Positions 2,298 through 44,027 of a stretch of 64,000 nucleotides of DNA are shown here, in pieces. A program made the position numbers and the translations under genes. The DNA comes from Escherichia coli (lineage in GTDB: Bacteria; Pseudomonadota; Gammaproteobacteria; Enterobacterales; Enterobacteriaceae), in the NCBI RefSeq assembly GCF_044324875.1, contig NZ_CP172185.1. One strand, given 5' to 3'. How positions within the stretch are numbered: the stretch's first letter is position 1; every line of letters begins with the position of its first letter. Below the pieces are notes generated by a model. The model saw nothing but the letters and a program-made list of their open reading frames with translations, ran no database searches and was not told where the DNA came from.

Positions 2298-4751
2298 TTA
2301 AAAATCAGCCTGATTCGGGATCAGTTTTTGTATAGTGGCTGTTACGTATTTTGCCTGGTGAAGAGCGTCATCCAGAGCATTATGGCGCACGCCTTCGAAT
2401 GGAATTACGCTTCTGGCATTGAAGTCTGTGATTTTCCCCATCTCAACGATTGTGCGTACATCACGATCGTTGCTGTAATGCCACGGACAGGGGATGTCCA
2501 GACGTTCGTATGAGGTGCGCAAAATTGCGTTATCGAACGTTGCGCCATTACCCCACACCTGAACGAATTTTTCATCAGAGTGTTCATTGACGAATTGCCG
2601 AAAACGCAAAAGGGCATCTTTCATTTTTACCTGGTCAGTTAAAATGGCAGCTCTGGCTTCGCTGGACTGCTTCAGCCACCATTCGATGGTGCCACCATCA
2701 GGAACAGCCCCTGTATTCATTGCGTCAGTCAGGCTGATAACGATATAAAATACCGGCCCGATTTCCCCTGTTTCCGGGTCGAAGAAAACCGCACCAATAA
2801 CTACTATGGGTGCATTGGTGTTGGCTCCCATTGTTTCAAGGTCGACTGACAGGTGATTCCATACTCTGCTGGTGGATGTGATTTCACGATGACCGTTCAT
2901 CTTAATTAAGGAATTTTCTGTTTCGCCAGTTTTATTATCGCTGGCGTGGCCCTGAGCGCCGCCAGTGTTCTCCTTGTGCGGATGCTCAGTGCCTTCCGTT
3001 TCCTCCGGATTTTTTTCCTGAGATTCAGCCTGATTTTCTCCATTGAATGTTTCCTGGTATGTTGCGTCACCCATTACTGAGCCACAATCAGGGCAGTTGC
3101 CGCCGCTGGTCTGACCGCAGGCGGTGCAGACTTTTTCCGGTTCCTGTTGCGCTACTGGCTCAGGTTGTTTCGTTTCTGGCTCGTTTTGTAACGCATTTTG
3201 GCTGTTTTGTTCCGCTTTCTGGTCGTTCTGTTCCGTTTCTTGCTGGTTCTGGTTCACTGAATCGCGAGTCTGGACTCCCTTAACCCATTTCAGATCATTC
3301 GGGTCGCTAATCCCTTCAACGAACTCACCACGCGAGGCCGCCAGTAATTTGTCTGCATCGACAGGATTTTTGGGCGGAATGTTTTTCCTAGCTTCATGGA
3401 GTTCTGCCCGCAGTTTCTGATATTTCGCATCAACAGAATTCACCTGCGGCTGAGCATCCAGCGGCTGCGTGTCCGGATGATGTTCAGTTGTATCCGGTTC
3501 CACTGTTTCAGTCGTTGGCTGTTCATCTGCCATTGCGCCAGACGGTTGCGGTTTTTCTTCATCATCCTGTTTTCCTTCTTCTGTTACACGCTGCGGCATT
3601 GGGGCAGAGGAACGACCGCAGGCAATATCCACGATTTCCGGATCAGGGTTGGCATGATCGGTTTCGGTCAGCACTTTATTCAAGTATTCGGTGACGCGCT
3701 GGGGCATAGCCTCTATACCAACCGGTGCTTCTTTCACGGAGGCAACCACGATGGCGCGGGAATAATCCATCCCGCCTGGCATGTTCAGAAAAGCCTTAAG
3801 GAAGACGGAGAAACAGGGATCATTTTCTGCGATAATTTCGTTAACACGTCTGGTATGTGAAGGATGCATGTTGTAAATATCCACATCCATCGAACGAGCC
3901 AGTTTTCCTGTAGCAACATCGAATGCCATTGACGCATTATCATGCACAAAACCTTCGCCGCGATCGGTAAGAATACCGCCGCCAGCGTTAGCGCCGGATG
4001 GTGTGCGACTGATGCGAGAAACACGATTTCCTTTCATCCACTCTTTTGTAAGCAGACCACGATCAGTGTAGTCAGCGTCCAGGTATGCTTCGATGAAGGA
4101 GGTCATCAGTCCCAGGTCTGAATTTACGGGGGCGGGAAAAACTTTGTCAGTGTCCCGCACCAGTTTGTACAAATCCCGAATCTCCAGCGGTTCGAGTTGC
4201 GCTGCTTTATTTGAGATGGCCAGCGCGGTAACGGCGGGAAGTTTTTCTTCCTGTGCGTTATGTAATGAGCGCAGTTCATCCCGCGAAACGTGCGTTACTG
4301 GTTTTTCGCCGCCGTGTTGCGCCAGCCAGCGAACAGGCAGAATCTGACCTGAAACCGGCAGAAGCATATTCTCCTCAATCTCAGTCATGTCTTCGCCATT
4401 AACATTGGTGTTGTCAGTGCTGGCTGGTTTGTCCTGCGCGGATGGCGGAGGCGCGATAAATATCATTGTGATGCCATCTTCGCCGCCTTTTTCATACCGG
4501 TTACAGAATTCGGTATCAAACACGCCTTCCGGTGGAAGGTCATCAACAACGGGCAAATGGACGCGAACAGGTTTTTTAAAGTCGTCTTCATCATAATCGT
4601 TATCATCCATTGCGGTAATGCAGCGGGAGATGGCAACAGATAATTTTTTTGCTGTAGTCCAGTAAAAACCACCTTTAATCCCAAGGCGTTTTCTGACTTT
4701 GTCATTTTTAGCTTCGCAATATAGCGCAAAAGTTTCTTTATCAGTGCTCAT
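2298..4751 (-). CDS. Large exonuclease with C-terminal DnaQ-like (DEDD) 3'-5' exonuclease domain; the type often annotated exodeoxyribonuclease VIII in E. coli prophages
   Basis: 817 aa ORF. C-terminal region has DLETMG...H...D motifs typical of DEDDh exonucleases. Central acidic/Gln-rich low-complexity region and an internal CxxC...CxxC zinc ribbon ([16 protein letters not shown]). Confidence 0.75.
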
Positions 4752-7121: not shown

Positions 7122-7406
7122 TTATGTTACAGGGAACTGTCGGCGGGTATGGACTACGTTTACTATTTCAATACTTGAGGTTGTCACGCGGTACAGAATT
7201 ATATAATTGGGGTGAGCCACAATCTCACGTAAGCCTGGCACTCTGTCGCTTGGGGGGTATAAATACGGATGTTCGGATAATGGCAGCACACACCCCCTTA
7301 ATCGCTGCCATAAGCGTTCTGCCGCATCTATGTCGAAACGAGCAATGTAACTAGTTATATCATCCAGGTCGGTATCTGCGCTTTCAGGCCATAACACAGG
7401 TAACAT
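7122..7406 (-). CDS. parE: ParE/RelE-superfamily toxin (ParE2-like) of a three-gene TA cassette
   Basis: 94 aa. N-terminal LWPESADTDLDDITSYIARFDIDAAERLWQRL and C-terminal IVAHPNYIILYRV fit the ParE pattern. Start abuts the stop of the upstream antitoxin. Confidence 0.8.
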   Translation of the reverse strand: MLPVLWPESADTDLDDITSYIARFDIDAAERLWQRLRGCVLPLSEHPYLYPPSDRVPGLREIVAHPNYIILYRVTTSSIEIVNVVHTRRQFPVT

Positions 7407-7598
7407 TTACTGTTCACTCCGTTCCTTGCGTATTTTAGCAAAGCGTTCTGCCATTCTGCGCTCAACTTCGTCATGGGGAATTGCTGGGCGCGGATCTGCA
7501 AGGCTTGCAGCTACTTTGGCTCGCAGCCATTCGTTGTAACTGTTTTCTTGTTCAATAGTTTCAAACTCAGAAACCATTGGTGAAAGGGCCGTATTCAT
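7407..7598 (-). CDS. paaA: PaaA2-like antitoxin (63 aa)
   Basis: ATG at 7598 preceded by GGAGG. MNTALSPMVSEFETIEQENSYNEWLRAKVAASLADPRPAIPHDEVERRMAERFAKIRKERSEQ resembles the recalled PaaA2 antitoxin of O157 prophage three-component systems. Confidence 0.7.
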   Translation of the reverse strand: MNTALSPMVSEFETIEQENSYNEWLRAKVAASLADPRPAIPHDEVERRMAERFAKIRKERSEQ

Positions 7599-7627
7599 GG
7601 CACACCTCCGTCTGTGTATGGTGGTCA

Positions 7628-8026
7628 TTATGCCCGATGCCCTTTCCGGGCAGCGAGCCATCTTTCAATTGTGCGATCCATTAACTCTTTTTTGTCTTTC
7701 ATCTCCTGAAGCATTTGCTCTTGATCTTCCTCTGGAAATGCCTCAAATGTTTGAAGTAGCTCCTTTTGCCTAGGAGTTATTTTTATTATATCTTGTATTC
7801 TGTCATTTTTTTCTTCATTTAACGGTAAGAAGAACCAATACTGAGGATATCCTGTTGCTTCAGATAGTTTATCTAGATTAGCTGCTGTAGGGCTTGAGAT
7901 ACCACAAACCCATCTTTGAACGGATTGTTGAGTAATGCCAATTCTGCGCGCAAGTTCTGCCTGGCTCCAGCCTGTTACCAACAAAAGCTTCCTAATTCTA
8001 AGAGCACTAATTTCGAGTACACCCAT
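7628..8026 (-). CDS. paaR: PaaR-like HTH regulator (DicA paralog); start uncertain (track ORF extends to 8101 from TTG)
   Basis: XRE-type HTH (GWSQAELARRIGITQQSVQRWVCG). C-terminal LTPRQKELLQTFEAFPEEDQEQMLQEMKDKKELM is paralogous to the C-terminus of the adjacent repressor. Sits directly upstream of the antitoxin-toxin pair. Confidence 0.6.
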   Translation of the reverse strand: MGVLEISALRIRKLLLVTGWSQAELARRIGITQQSVQRWVCGISSPTAANLDKLSEATGYPQYWFFLPLNEEKNDRIQDIIKITPRQKELLQTFEAFPEEDQEQMLQEMKDKKELMDRTIERWLAARKGHRA

Positions 8027-8060
8027 CTGATATATCTTGTTTTTAAGAGTATGCTTCCCA

Positions 8061-8432
8061 TCAGGCGCGGCGACCTTGCTGCGCCAACCAACGTGCGACA
8101 AAATCTTCCATTGCTTCTTTTTTGTTTCTTAGTTCTTTTATGATCTCTTGCTGTTCATTATCAGGAAATGCACTAAATATTTGTAGCAATTCCAGCTGGT
8201 TAGGGGTTAATGCTATAGCTCTTGATGATGGAGACTCTGTTATGTCTTCTGGCTCAATATCAAGATAACCCCCTGGCATCCCATATGTTTGTTCAATACG
8301 TCTAGCTGCTTTTTCGCCAAACGTAGCCTTACCGCTCATTAACTGAGATAAGTAACTTTTCTCTTTGGGTGGCAAAGTTCTGTCTTTGAACCACTCTTTG
8401 AGGCGTAAACGCCGAATCTCTCTTGTTTCCAT
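8061..8432 (-). CDS. dicA: Prophage immunity repressor, DicA-like (HTH_XRE)
   Basis: 123 aa. HTH (SYLSQLMSGKATFGEKAARRIEQTYG) and C-terminal LTPNQLELLQIFSAFPDNEQQEIIKELRNK resemble recalled Qin DicA. Divergent from the cro-like gene. Confidence 0.75.
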   Translation of the reverse strand: METREIRRLRLKEWFKDRTLPPKEKSYLSQLMSGKATFGEKAARRIEQTYGMPGGYLDIEPEDITESPSSRAIALTPNQLELLQIFSAFPDNEQQEIIKELRNKKEAMEDFVARWLAQQGRRA

Positions 8433-8535
8433 ACATGCATTATCTTTAGTAATTGCGAAATAAGCAAATACTTGACTGGTTTATTTAGTTACGTATAAAC
8501 TTTTGCTTGCACTAAAGTATGTTGAGATCGAAATC
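8433..8535. promoter_or_regulatory. Divergent immunity promoter/operator region between the repressor and cro-like genes
   Basis: Sigma70-like rightward promoter TTGACT (8472..8477), 16 bp spacer, TATAAA (8494..8499). Flanked by partially palindromic TTTAGTAA / ACTAAAG motifs that may be operators. Confidence 0.5.
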
Positions 8536-8823
8536 ATGACTCTAAAGGAATTCATCAAATCATTAAAAACTGGAGAAGCAAAAAAATTTGCTGCCAACCT
8601 TGGTGTGTCTCCGTCCTTCTTGTCTCAAATGGCATCTGGCAGTTCACCAGTGTCTCCTGTTCGTGCGTTAATGATAGAAGCAGAAACTGCAGGGCATGTT
8701 ACAAGAAGAGAGTTGAGGCCGAATGACTGGGATCTTATATGGCCGGAATACACCGGAATTACGCCCCCTTCAAGTCATAAATATGAGCTTAACACCAAAA
8801 AAGTTGATGGGGTTGATTCATGA
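8536..8823 (+). CDS. Cro-like regulator, YdaS/DicC-type HTH
   Basis: Internal ATG at 8536 of track ORF 8503..8823. Motif KFAANLGVSPSFLSQMASGSSPVSPVRALMIEAETAGHV resembles Rac YdaS. First rightward gene. Confidence 0.7.
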   Translation: MTLKEFIKSLKTGEAKKFAANLGVSPSFLSQMASGSSPVSPVRALMIEAETAGHVTRRELRPNDWDLIWPEYTGITPPSSHKYELNTKKVDGVDS

Positions 8824-9245
8824 AAATCAAACATGAGCACATCCGCATGGCGATGAATGCCTGGGCGCATCCGGACGGCGAAAAAGTACCGGCTGCGAAA
8901 ATTACCAAAGCGTATTTCGAACTGGGTATGACGTTCCCGGAACTGTACGACGACAGCCACCCTGAAGCCCTGGCGCGTAATACCCAGAAAATTTTCCGCT
9001 GGGTAGAGAAAGACACCCCTGATGCAGTTGAAAAAATTCAGGCGTTGTTACCAGCGATCGAAAAGGCAATGCCACCTTTGCTGGTGGCCAGAATGCGCAG
9101 CCACAGTTCAGCTTATTTTCGGGAGCTGGTGGAGATGCGGGAACGACTGGTGAGAGACGCTGATGATTTTGTCGCGGTGGCAATAGCTGGCTTCAACCAG
9201 ATCAACCGTGGTGGCCCGGCCGGAAATGCTGTGGCTGTGCATTGA
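8820..9245 (+). CDS. YdaT-like protein (proposed CII-like regulator in Rac-type prophages)
   Basis: 141 aa starting MKIKHEHI, as recalled for Rac YdaT; overlaps the cro-like stop (translational coupling). Confidence 0.7.
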   Translation: MKIKHEHIRMAMNAWAHPDGEKVPAAKITKAYFELGMTFPELYDDSHPEALARNTQKIFRWVEKDTPDAVEKIQALLPAIEKAMPPLLVARMRSHSSAYFRELVEMRERLVRDADDFVAVAIAGFNQINRGGPAGNAVAVH

Positions 9246-9316
9246 TCGGCAATATTCATACCGGATCTCTTTCGGTAATACGTGATTAAAAAGATTCGGT
9301 ATCTGAAGAGGTTAGT

Positions 9317-10387
9317 ATGGCTAATGCCTGGCTCAGATTATGGCATGACATGCCAAATGACCCCAAGTGGCGAACCATTGCCCGGGTGTCAGGTCAGCCA
9401 ATTGCAACAGTGATGGCTGTGTATATCCACCTCCTGGTGAGCGCGTCACGAAATGTCACGCGAGGTCACATTGATGTCACGACCGAGGATTTGGCAAGTG
9501 CGCTCGATGTGACAGAAGAGATGATTGATTCAATTTTGCAGACGATGCAGGGGCGGGTACTTGATGGTGATTTAATCACTGGATGGGAAAAACGCCAGGT
9601 GCTGAAAGAGGACAACGGCAATATTTCGCAAACCGCAAAATCTCCTGCAGAGCGCAAGAGGGCGCAGCGAGAGAGGGAAAGAAAGCGGGAACAAAATGGC
9701 GATTGTCACGGCGCGTCACGAAATGTCACGCACATGTCACGACGAGTCACGACAGATAAAGATACAGATAAAGATACAGATCAAGAAGATCAAAACACTA
9801 TGGTCCATGGCGTGAAAAACGCCACGAACCAGGCTGGGGATGTTCAGACCGTCAATCCTGATCAGCCCGCAGGCACGACACCGGAAGCCGATTCAGCGTA
9901 TGCGCTGAAAGCCGATTCGGGCGCTGTGCAGCAGGCGATGACCGCAGGGTCGGAGCAATCACACCAACTGCAGCAGCCTGAAGCCGATTCCGCGATTCAG
10001 CGGGAAGCCGATCGGGTAGTCCCGGAAAACACCGGGCAGCCTGTGGGACGAGTGGATTATCCGGATGTGTTCGAACAGGTCTGGCGGGAATACCCGTTGC
10101 GTGCCGGGGCAAACCCGAAGAAATCCGCTTTCAGTGCCTGGAAGGCCAGATTACGCGAGGGGGTGCCACCGCAGGTCATGCTGGATGGTGTGAGGCGTTA
10201 CGCGAGGTACCTGGCGGCGACCGGGAAAGCGGGAACGGAATTTGTTCAGCGGGCGACAACGTTTTTTGGACCTGACCGGAATTTTGAAAACCCCTGGTTG
10301 CTCCCGACTGGCGGGACGAACAACCAGCGTTGTGTGAATCATATTTCCGAACCGGATACCGAAATTCCACCAGGTTTCAGGGGGTGA
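9317..10387 (+). CDS. Replication initiator / replisome organiser (O-like, with conserved phage C-terminal domain)
   Basis: 356 aa. N-terminal MANAWLRLWHDMPNDPKWRTIA and C-terminal FEQVWREYPLRAGANPKKSAFSAWKARL are typical of phage replication initiators. Iteron clusters lie inside the gene. Confidence 0.75.
   Translation: MANAWLRLWHDMPNDPKWRTIARVSGQPIATVMAVYIHLLVSASRNVTRGHIDVTTEDLASALDVTEEMIDSILQTMQGRVLDGDLITGWEKRQVLKEDNGNISQTAKSPAERKRAQRERERKREQNGDCHGASRNVTHMSRRVTTDKDTDKDTDQEDQNTMVHGVKNATNQAGDVQTVNPDQPAGTTPEADSAYALKADSGAVQQAMTAGSEQSHQLQQPEADSAIQREADRVVPENTGQPVGRVDYPDVFEQVWREYPLRAGANPKKSAFSAWKARLREGVPPQVMLDGVRRYARYLAATGKAGTEFVQRATTFFGPDRNFENPWLLPTGGTNNQRCVNHISEPDTEIPPGFRG
9440..9795. repeat. 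Putative replication origin: two iteron clusters plus an A/T-rich tandem repeat inside the O-like gene
   Basis: TCACGAAATGTCACGC-GAGGTCACATTGATGTCACGA at about 9444..9490 and GTCACGGCGCGTCACGAAATGTCACGCACATGTCACGACGAGTCACGA at about 9700..9750 (at least 8 GTCACG-type repeats); GATAAAGATACA x2 at about 9757..9790. Confidence 0.5.
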
Positions 10388-10393
10388 AGGATT

Positions 10394-11140
10394 ATGAAAA
10401 ATATAGCGGCAGGAGGTGTTCTTGAACGTATCCGCAAGCTGGCACCACAGCATGTAACCGCGCCGTACCGGACGGCAGAAGAGTGGCGTGAGTGGCAACT
10501 TGCGGAAGGCCAGAAACGTTGCGAGGAGATCAACCGTCAGAATCGTCAGTTACGGGTGGAAAAAATTCTGAATCGCTCCGGTATCCAGCCGTTGCACCGC
10601 AAATGTTCGTTTGCGAATTACTGGGTGCAGAACGACGGCCAGCGATATGCGCTGAGCCAGGCAAAATCCATCGCGGACGTACTGAGAACCGGATGCACAA
10701 ATTTCGTGTTCAGCGGTAAGCCGGGTACCGGAAAAAATCACCTGGCAGCCGCCATCGGTAATCATCTTCTGGCGAAAGGTCGCAGCGTGATTGTGGTCAC
10801 GGTGGCTGATGTGATGCTGGCGCTACACGGCATCTACGATAACAAAAACTCAGGCGAAAAATTTTTGCAGGGTTTGTGTGACGTTGACCTGCTGGTTCTG
10901 GATGAGATTGGCATGCAGCGTGATACGCGCAACGAACAGGTCACACTGAACCAGATCGTCGATCGCAGAACAGCCGCGATGCGCAGTGTCGGGATGCTGA
11001 CGAACCTGAATCATACCGCAATGAGCACCCTGCTTGGCGGGCGCGTGATGGACCGCATGACCATGAACGGTGGGCGCTGGGTGAATTTTAACTGGGAGAG
11101 CTGGCGTGCGAATGTCGGTCAGCCAGGAATTGAAAAGTAA
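10394..11140 (+). CDS. DnaC-like helicase loader (IstB/DnaC AAA+ ATPase)
   Basis: 248 aa with Walker A FSGKPGTGKNHLAAAIG and Walker B LLVLDEIG; directly follows the initiator gene. Confidence 0.85.
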   Translation: MKNIAAGGVLERIRKLAPQHVTAPYRTAEEWREWQLAEGQKRCEEINRQNRQLRVEKILNRSGIQPLHRKCSFANYWVQNDGQRYALSQAKSIADVLRTGCTNFVFSGKPGTGKNHLAAAIGNHLLAKGRSVIVVTVADVMLALHGIYDNKNSGEKFLQGLCDVDLLVLDEIGMQRDTRNEQVTLNQIVDRRTAAMRSVGMLTNLNHTAMSTLLGGRVMDRMTMNGGRWVNFNWESWRANVGQPGIEK

Positions 11141-11163
11141 TTTTATCGGGGAGAAAAAATTTA

Positions 11164-11934
11164 ATGGAAACCGTTTTAGACGCACTGAAAGCAATGGGAA
11201 AAGCCACGTCGGTAGAATTGGCTACGCGACTTGATATCAGTCGTGAAGAAGTTCTGAACGAGCTGTGGGAACTCAAAAGAAATGGCCTCGTTGATAAAAC
11301 TGGTCACATCTGGTTTCTGGCTGGCGAAGGTGAATCCCGGGTAACCGAAGAGCGACCAGTAAAATCTGAAGCACAGGATATGCTGACCGGGGAGGTTGAA
11401 CAAAAAGTTACCGCAGACATGATGATTGAGTTTATCAGTCAGGAGGGGGCTAAAACGTGTGAGGAACTGGCGGGTAAGTTCGGTGTCAGCACTCGCAAGG
11501 TTGCTTCCACACTGGCGGTAGTAACCGCAACGGGGCGGCTGGCACGCGTTAATCGGAACGGTAAATTTAGTTACTGCATGCCGGGCGATAATTTACCGGC
11601 AGAGCCGAAAGCTGCACCGGTAACGAAAACGGCTGGTAAGGCCTTTCCTCAGCCAGCAGGTGTTGCGTTACCAGTACAGGAAGCTGCAACACAGGAAGAA
11701 ATTACAACAGATACTGTGGCGGACATTGTGCAGTCGCTGCCATCGTTTACTGAAACGCGAGCGGATGACCTGGTTTTACCATCGCTGCATATGGCAAACC
11801 GCGAATTGCGTCGGGCGAAAAATCATGTTCAGAAGTGGGAGCGAGTCTGCGCCGCGCTGCGGGAGCTGAACAAGCACCGGGATATTGTTCGACAGATTAC
11901 TGATTCTTCCCGCCGTGTTGTATCGGAAAAGTGA
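11164..11934 (+). CDS. Hypothetical phage protein with N-terminal winged-helix-like region
   Basis: 256 aa; N-terminus ELATRLDISREEVLNELWELKRNGLVDKTG is wHTH-like; Ala/Pro-rich linker. Confidence 0.55.
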   Translation: METVLDALKAMGKATSVELATRLDISREEVLNELWELKRNGLVDKTGHIWFLAGEGESRVTEERPVKSEAQDMLTGEVEQKVTADMMIEFISQEGAKTCEELAGKFGVSTRKVASTLAVVTATGRLARVNRNGKFSYCMPGDNLPAEPKAAPVTKTAGKAFPQPAGVALPVQEAATQEEITTDTVADIVQSLPSFTETRADDLVLPSLHMANRELRRAKNHVQKWERVCAALRELNKHRDIVRQITDSSRRVVSEK

Positions 11935-43680: not shown

Positions 43681-44027
43681 TGATATCTCTCCCTGCAGGT
43701 TCGCGTATCTGGCTGGTTGCAGGTATCACCGATATGCGAAATGGCTTTAACGGCCTGGCATCAAAAGTTCAGAACGTCCTGAAGGATGACCCGTTCTCCG
43801 GACACCTGTTCATCTTCCGCGGACGCCGGGGTGACCAGATAAAAGTGTTGTGGGCTGACAGTGACGGACTGTGCCTCTTCACCAAACGCCTGGAGCGGGG
43901 CCGCTTCGTCTGGCCAGTCACCCGTGACGGCAAGGTGCACCTTACTCCGGCTCAGTTATCCATGCTTCTTGAAGGTATCAACTGGAAGCACCCGAAACGA
44001 ACGGAACGCGCTGGAATCCGCATATAA
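43680..44027 (+). CDS. tnpB: IS66-family TnpB (orf2)
   Basis: 115 aa; MISLPAGSRIWLVAGITDMRNGFNGLASKVQNVLKDDPFSGHLFIFRGRRGDQIKVLWAD is the typical IS66 Orf2. Confidence 0.85.
   Translation: MISLPAGSRIWLVAGITDMRNGFNGLASKVQNVLKDDPFSGHLFIFRGRRGDQIKVLWADSDGLCLFTKRLERGRFVWPVTRDGKVHLTPAQLSMLLEGINWKHPKRTERAGIRI

Follow-up and report, generated by a model that had tools for sequence, protein, structure and literature searches.

We conclude from the sequence that positions 9445–9831 of a 64,000-nucleotide (nt) stretch of Escherichia coli DNA (contig NZ_CP172185.1 of assembly GCF_044324875.1; this whole stretch is called the window below) are likely to be the origin of vegetative, theta-type replication of a lambdoid prophage, placed within the gene that encodes the prophage's initiator. 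This initiator (replisome-organiser) gene occupies 9317–10387 on the + strand and encodes 356 amino acids (aa). An initial annotation, made from the letters alone, had proposed a likely origin here, and the proposal gains support from a match of the protein over its full length to PHROG 3729 (“replication initiation protein”), from a helicase-loader gene that begins 6 nt past the initiator gene, from selection on its repeats at the DNA level and from a layout that recurs in unrelated phages.

Repeat arrays and A/T-rich tract within the initiator gene

The hexamer GTCACG occurs on the + strand at 9445, 9455, 9476, 9705, 9715, 9725, 9736, and 9746 (eight exact copies), and a GTCACA variant at 9465 provides a ninth direct site. 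These putative iterons form two arrays: array 1 (9445–9481, + strand) holds four direct sites (GTCACG at 9445, 9455, and 9476; GTCACA at 9465) spaced by 10/10/11 bp, and array 2 (9705–9751, + strand) holds five GTCACG sites, also direct, spaced by 10/10/11/10 bp. A single inverted copy on the - strand, TGTGAC (the reverse complement of GTCACA), lies at 9508–9513, ~30 bp past array 1. The initial annotation had counted at least eight GTCACG-centred repeats in two clusters about 220 bp apart within the coding sequence; the count is eight GTCACG plus one GTCACA (4 + 5 sites), the gap from 9481 to 9705 measures 223 bp, and both arrays lie inside the open reading frame (ORF) at 9317–10387 (+), so that description is accurate. 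Tandem Repeats Finder likewise returned a period-10 array of 5.0 copies at 9704–9754, together with the A/T-rich 12-bp tandem repeat described below.

Across the window as a whole, GTCACG is present at its chance frequency (29 observed vs. 28.8 expected), and 8 of the 19 copies on the + strand are packed into 307 bp (Poisson P(≥8) = 1.5e-15, or ~6e-13 once scanning is corrected for). Exactly the same nine-site pattern was present in 67 of 70 scorable near-identical copies in IMG/VR. No second iteron cluster, comparable to oriR of phage SPP1, was found elsewhere in the window. The only other 100-nt segment with four GTCAC/GTGAC matches (43829–43929) has them in mixed orientation within ordinary coding sequence and was judged a chance occurrence; the coding sequence at 43800–43960 resembles that of an IS66-family TnpB. 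A candidate DnaA box, a TATATCCACC-like sequence at 9421–9430, was dropped, being by eye unconserved in the Pseudomonas and Aeromonas genes described below.

Repeats inside a gene could also lack any DNA-level function and have arisen only because a peptide is repeated or because low-complexity coding sequence has slipped. The protein does contain SRNVT twice (aa 44–48 and 134–138), and the linker that carries the second copy is of low complexity and disordered. The duplication arises from a 20-nt block, GCGTCACGAAATGTCACGC, that the two arrays have in common, so the remark of the initial annotation on repeated RNVT motifs is correct but secondary. We give this explanation almost no credence. 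The nine sites are spread over all three codon phases (4, 2, and 3 sites) with a period of 10–11 bp that is not a multiple of three, and when the protein was recoded synonymously 5000 times with local codon usage, the sequences contained on average 0.95 GTCACG and at most 5, against the 8 observed. Synonymous conservation was measured in a codon alignment of 19 distinct homologues (59–67% nucleotide identity), comparing sequences with the same amino acid. Third codon positions were conserved at 0.99 in repeat cores (n = 14) vs. 0.63 outside them (n = 112; Mann–Whitney p = 8.6e-8). Array 1 is as strongly conserved at synonymous sites as array 2, where the third base of some codons is invariant (1.0) although the amino acid varies, and the codon V65 GTG of the inverted site reaches 0.89.

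The same gene shows how a true peptide repeat looks. AAGCCGAT occurs four times at 9885, 9909, 9981, and 10005 (9885–10012), in a single codon phase and at 24/72/24-bp spacing. The encoded (E/K)AD(S/R) falls within the acidic, disordered linker, and the repeat has the look of a peptide motif rather than a DNA site. A related repeat, GAAGC(A/C)GATT, occurs three times in the corresponding gene of phage POCJ13. We conclude that the iterons, with their use of all codon phases, their period and their synonymous excess and conservation, are under DNA-level selection and are not peptide repeats.

Directly past the last GTCACG site begins an A/T-rich, purine-skewed tract (9752–9801) that we propose as the DNA-unwinding element. 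It contains a 12-bp tandem repeat, ACAGATAAAGAT, in 2.9 copies (9752–9786, 95% matches according to Tandem Repeats Finder) and two GATC sites, in agreement with the A/T-rich tandem repeat that the initial annotation had placed after the iterons. The GC content falls to 0.35 at 9760–9819, and 9752–9801 is the least stable 50-mer of the region 8400–11300 and stands at the 99th percentile in the whole window. An imperfect inverted repeat of 13 pairs (TGGTCCATGGCGT / ACGCCACGAACCA) follows immediately 3' of the tract (9801–9831); in ori-lambda, a palindrome holds the equivalent position. An Rfam E-value scan for structured RNA over 8300–10600 gave one meaningless match only.

The two GATC (Dam) sites are at 9779 and 9788, and GAT recurs every 6 nt in the tract. 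The equivalent tract of ydaU in the Rac prophage of E. coli K-12 (locus L171, 4117–4135) likewise has two GATC sites. These sites and the GAT periodicity could possibly be linked to control by methylation and SeqA, or to recognition of single strands.

The initiator protein and its homologues

The structure of the initiator was modelled with AlphaFold2 from a 39-sequence alignment. The protein is laid out as a DnaD-like winged-helix N-domain (aa 4–95), a basic helix (110–126), a disordered linker (127–245), a helical C-domain (246–316), and a DnaT-like tail (338–356). The N-domain is modelled confidently (predicted local distance difference test, pLDDT, >90 for residues 11–90), with helices at 16–25 and 29–45, a loop at 46–55, helices at 56–63 and 67–77, and a β-hairpin wing at 78–88, and its predicted fold is closest to the N-terminal domain of DnaD (DnaD-NTD) and to phage replisome organisers. 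Since the N- and C-terminal halves match separate PHROGs, the initiator is modular. Array 1 encodes aa 43–55, that is the end of helix 29–45 and the variable loop before the winged helix. Array 2 encodes aa 130–145 within the disordered linker, whose start is encoded by array 2 and the A-rich tract together.

Pfam searches at E ≤ 0.01 gave no match for the window protein, nor did any of the 39 homologues have a match in its N-domain; NCBIfam indicated no initiator membership beyond the DnaT tail, and a search of PDB sequences with the N-domain profile gave no match. A distant and purely structural likeness links it to RepA_N-type initiators of Gram-positive plasmids (e.g., RepA of staphylococcal multiresistance plasmids, PDB 4pta), which serve plasmid rather than phage replicons and have other interaction partners. 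The last 17 residues, VNHISEPDTEIPPGFRG (aa 340–356, encoded at 10334–10384), match the tail of E. coli DnaT, VNTVSEPDSQIPPGFRG, almost completely (E = 2e-4 to 7e-4) and carry the DnaT-type ending ...SEPD..IPPGFRG. The protein is not a full-length equivalent of DnaT, as the NCBIfam DnaT model scores 18 bits against a cutoff of 201, over the last 24 residues only; the C-terminal 122 aa gave no match to the DNA-binding domain of DnaT (PF17948), even with the threshold relaxed to E ≤ 5. The same DnaT-like tail also ends K-12 Rac YdaU, which has an unrelated N-domain, and this suggests a portable host-interaction peptide.

A search of 5426 complete E. coli genomes found the initiator gene in 2237 at ≥80% nucleotide identity, and the gene is ~95% identical in the phages Tritos, Evi and others, of which Tritos and Evi are inducible. 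Relatives of the initiator are also present in Pseudomonas, Aeromonas, and Ralstonia, in metagenomic phages and in cyanophages. The first 467 nt of the gene are ~70% identical to Pseudomonas phages and the first 284 nt ~71% identical to an Aeromonas phage, and the last 480 nt match POCJ13 and 75/02, two Shiga toxin (Stx) phages in which the N-terminal half of the initiator is unrelated. Pseudomonas phage phita81A and Aeromonas phage pAEv1818 have GTCACG at the same gene positions, about 129–160 and 388–418. Among the E. coli, Pseudomonas, and Aeromonas genes, array 1 is nearly invariant within surroundings that are ~70% identical, and so is the A-rich core AGATAAAGATACAGA.AAGA, while the copy number of array 2 varies (5 in the window gene, 4 in Pseudomonas, 3 in Aeromonas). 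Most GTCACG-type homologues also have the inverted copy at the equivalent gene position (about 180–193).

Homologues at 30–48% amino-acid identity keep the layout and change the core. A Manatee Spring podovirus has a CGAACGC core, and Ralstonia phage Firinga has GCAACG at gene positions 130/140/151/161/182 and 401/411/421/431. We assembled 79 distinct homologous loci, combining an IMG/VR scan led by a divergent family member with the loci found earlier, and scored arrays as copies of one hexamer within the first 600 nt of the gene, taking the 600 nt after the gene as control. At least five copies of a single hexamer were found in 59 of the 79 loci and at least six in 50, with a mean top count of 6.7 vs. 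3.7 in control DNA. The most frequent cores were GTCACG (23 loci), AACGCC/ACGCCA (13), GCAACG (9), and GTGACG (9, with up to 16 copies), and CGAACG, GGACAC, and GTAACG were found as well. Adjacent copies are spaced by 10 bp in 166 cases, 11 bp in 66, and 20–21 bp in 39. Within 130 nt past the last iteron of the 59 repeat-bearing loci lies a 30-nt stretch that averages 0.70 A+T, vs. 0.41 for the locus, and is purine-rich on the coding strand (0.66). Many homologues have a GC-rich hairpin at about +27 to +60 past the last iteron.

The arrays are bipartite in 38 loci, and some subfamilies have the array-2 position alone. The array-1 segment coincides exactly with the variable-length part of the family alignment and is short in subfamilies that lack array 1. 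In GTGACG-type homologues (L105, L107, L116, and L120; gene positions about 140–300), array 1 has grown to 8–10 copies, and the loop flanked by the conserved “AS” and “RG” residues is 12–26 residues longer; expansion of the repeats has therefore directly lengthened the initiator protein.

This distribution bears on whether both arrays belong to the origin. Array 2, the A/T tract and the hairpin might suffice as an origin, and array 1 with the inverted site might have another job, such as autoregulation by blocking transcription, titration or handcuffing of the initiator to limit re-initiation, or superinfection exclusion. The AACGCC/ACGCCA, GGACAC, and GTAACG types and some GTCACG types (L137, L159), which have repeats only at the array-2 position, are in line with this idea, as are the association of the conserved inverted copy with array 1 alone and the report that in lambda two iterons and the A/T region are enough for unwinding (PMC7466680, citing Dodson 1986). 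Array 1 nonetheless matches array 2 in core, orientation, spacing and synonymous-site conservation, and there is a precedent in Stx phages, where replication is efficient only with additional, distal iterons (PMC7466680). We regard a separate job for array 1 as possible but rather unlikely; it would in any case refine the origin reading rather than compete with it. Array 2 and the A/T tract are all that some subfamilies have, so these are probably the core of the origin, with array 1 probably in an auxiliary or enhancing role.

The repeats might also be operators for another protein (a CII/YdaT-like or Cro/YdaS-like protein, a repressor or a host factor) that control expression rather than replication. 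Helix-turn-helix (HTH) regulators are encoded directly upstream, and a weak promoter-like match on the - strand (9729–9702) overlaps array 2, although such matches occur at chance frequency. We consider this very improbable. In a tblastn survey, GTCACG arrays accompany the N-domain, with or without YdaS, YdaT, the loader or the C-domain, and most array-bearing loci lack YdaS, YdaT or loader homologues within the 1.5–2.5 kb of flanking sequence covered. Sharers of the N-domain alone carry arrays. Conversely, POCJ13 (sharing C-domain, loader, and DUF1627) and K-12 Rac (sharing YdaT, loader, and DUF1627) have genes in common with the window, lack the N-domain and lack GTCACG arrays. Among phages whose hosts are similar the core differs, and this speaks against a host factor. 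That arrays travel with the N-domain is the pattern expected if the iterons are matched to the DNA-binding domain of the initiator itself.

Surrounding genes and comparison with known systems

Downstream of the initiator gene, the loader gene (10394–11140, + strand) encodes a DnaC-like AAA+ helicase loader (Pfam IstB_IS21; NCBIfam PRK12377, 485 bits against a cutoff of 389) that is 83% identical to YdaV of K-12 Rac, and is followed by DUF1627 and DUF977 genes. Upstream of the initiator gene are a YdaS-like (Cro-type) gene (PF15943) and a YdaT/CII-like gene (PF06254), and further upstream two divergently oriented HTH repressor-like genes. A promoter-like site, TTGACT-18-TAAACT (8472–8501, + strand), matches the consensus upstream of the ydaS-like, ydaT-like, initiator, and loader genes; if active, it would send transcription through the origin.

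On the - strand at 7628–8432, two overlapping ORFs (157 and 123 aa), the longer with an HTH_3 domain, have clearly similar C-terminal halves (LTPNQLELLQIFSAFPDNEQQEIIKELRNKKEAMEDFVARWL vs. ITPRQKELLQTFEAFPEEDQEQMLQEMKDKKELMDRTIERWL) and resemble a tandem pair of paralogous immunity-repressor genes that diverge from the ydaS-like gene. Beside this immunity region, two adjacent small ORFs at 7122–7661 on the - strand (94 and 84 aa) are by eye candidates for a ParE/RelE-type toxin and its antitoxin.

In lambda and Stx phages, iterons and an A/T tract lie in the middle of gene O, and replication of lambda involves an O-some and transcriptional activation (PMC7466680). The window resembles lambda in having iterons and then an A/T-rich, purine-skewed tract inside the initiator gene, and in the place of this gene past cro/cII-like genes in a rightward early operon whose transcription would cross the origin. 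Both initiators are modular: the N-terminal part goes with the iterons, and the C-terminal part with the partner that delivers the helicase (PMC7466680). The lambda-style arrangement proposed by the initial annotation, an origin within O, thus stands for the type of function and the layout. It does not extend to homology: neither the window initiator nor the N-domains of the 39 homologues match Phage_rep_O (PF04492), the predicted fold is nearest to DnaD-NTD and replisome organisers, and lambda O was absent from the named matches among the top 50 BFVD fold matches, many of which are nameless. Lambda iterons are units of ~19 bp with inverted symmetry, whereas the sites here are 6-bp cores in direct orientation every 10–11 bp. 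The window has a pair of arrays separated by 223 bp, one of which falls within the domain-encoding part, and the partner is a DnaC-like AAA+ loader and not lambda P.

Bacillus phage SPP1 offers a second comparison. Its oriL lies within gene 38, with repeats bound by G38P beside a DNA-unwinding element, and a loader and a helicase are encoded downstream (PMC5737612). Similarly, our candidate origin (repeats and A/T-rich tract) is in an organiser gene with a helicase-loader gene downstream, and the N-domain is modelled as a DnaD-like winged helix, as in phage replisome organisers. The likeness is limited, as PF09681 of the replisome organisers matches none of the 39 homologues and not the window protein, and the G38P-type C-terminus (PF09524) occurs in 2 of the 39 and not in the window protein. 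Hosts are proteobacterial here (with cyanophages in addition), a DnaC-like loader and a DnaT-like tail on the initiator are further differences, and no second, distant site equivalent to oriR was found within the window. Replisome organisers of lactococcal and streptococcal phages (TP901-1, Tuc2009) also have in-gene origins.

The initial annotation had also suggested a comparison with Rac-type replication modules, which holds for the flanking genes and fails for the initiator. K-12 Rac has the gene order ydaS-ydaT-ydaU-ydaV, with the same YdaS and YdaT Pfam matches and the related loader noted above. YdaU shares the DnaT-like tail, and its gene has repeats of its own, then an A-rich element, AATAAAGATACAGATAAAGATC, that is almost the one in the window and includes the core AGATAAAGATACAGA.AAGA, and then a C7/G5 hairpin. 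However, its N-domain is an unrelated DUF1376, for which the window protein has no match, and only the DnaT-like tail and the low-complexity linker of the two proteins align. The repeats in ydaU, (A/G)ATGTTCAA in 5–6 copies at ~33-bp spacing, are not GTCACG either. In L171, which holds ydaU (NC_000913.3, 1421119–1421976), the repeats, the A-rich element and the CCCCCCC...GGGGG hairpin are at locus coordinates 3760–4160. An active origin, oriJ, has been reported for Rac (PMC3945230), and this region is a plausible candidate for its position.

The C-terminal half of the initiator is shared with Stx phages of the Eru4 type (Shigella phages 75/02 and POCJ13), of which 75/02 is a listed representative (PMC8951638). 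These phages have ~82% nucleotide and 80% amino-acid identity in that half and share the DnaC-like loader (83%) and the DUF1627 gene. They differ in the unrelated N-terminal half and lack GTCACG arrays, with not a single GTCACG in the POCJ13 gene. No origin analysis was found in the papers on Eru types.

Proposed mechanism and significance

We infer the binder of the repeats, the site of unwinding, the looping and the recruitment of the helicase as follows. Upon derepression, the operon would be transcribed from near 8500 through the origin, and the 356-aa initiator and the DnaC-like loader would be made. The winged-helix N-domain would bind GTCACG cores. Since their 10–11-bp spacing puts the cores on one face of the helix, protomers could stack into an oligomer, which would form on array 2 (9705–9751) and probably on array 1 (9445–9481, with the inverted site at 9508–9513). 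The two arrays may be bridged, with ~220 bp looped out as in the lambda O-some. On supercoiled DNA, this complex would melt the adjoining A/T-rich tract (9752–9801), and the C-domain and DnaT-like tail would recruit host DnaB, loaded by the phage DnaC-like protein or by host DnaC. Phage Tritos (L004, 2501–6069) has the same initiator and identical iteron positions, and no DnaC-like gene in the 2.5 kb downstream, so that a phage-encoded loader may be optional for this type of origin.

Several observations weigh against an origin of this kind. By the hexamer method, 20 of the 79 homologous loci have no clear repeat array. The enrichment of hairpins across the family is modest (mean 6.8 pairs vs. 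6.1 in controls), promoter-like matches in the region are no more numerous than expected by chance, and Foldseek returned no significant match in PDB for the full-length model. The co-inheritance of N-domain and GTCACG is in part a matter of physical linkage because the repeats lie inside or just past the sequence that encodes the N-domain. Finally, an error of 0.1 bp in the helical repeat amounts to a quarter-turn shift over 260 bp, so it is undecidable over this distance whether the two arrays are in phase.

An origin within an initiator gene is a well-known kind of element, and the general picture of the initiation of phage replication is unchanged. Particular to this case are an N-domain without a Pfam model, 6-bp cores at the spacing of the helical repeat, and a bipartite design in which array 1 is part of the coding sequence for a variable loop of the DNA-binding domain. 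Our literature searches found no description of the origin of this initiator family and no paper that pairs GTCACG with iterons.

Two further ideas seem to us improbable, though less so than the operator explanation. The first is that array 1 is functionally coupled with the loop that it encodes. Translation of array 1 yields a surface loop (aa 46–55) in the DNA-binding domain of the initiator, and the loop sequence changes as the core changes; if this loop contacts DNA or takes part in oligomerisation, a switch in origin specificity would at the same time alter a segment of the protein that recognises the origin. The second is a single-strand role for the A-rich element with GAT every 6 nt. 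As this element is common to the gene of this N-domain and to that of the DUF1376 protein YdaU, one may speculate that the DnaT-like C-terminal part recognises it as a single strand, and that it does more than melt easily.

The likely specificity code, with cores of the type G-N-N-A-C-G, could be used to annotate origins in many prophages. It may also help to predict replication incompatibility or cross-activation among co-resident prophages, including Stx phages of the Eru4 type that share the C-terminal module, and to guide the building of origin plasmids or decoy origins. The changing cores form a notable and clean series, and these natural initiator/iteron pairs would serve the study of how origin specificity evolves.

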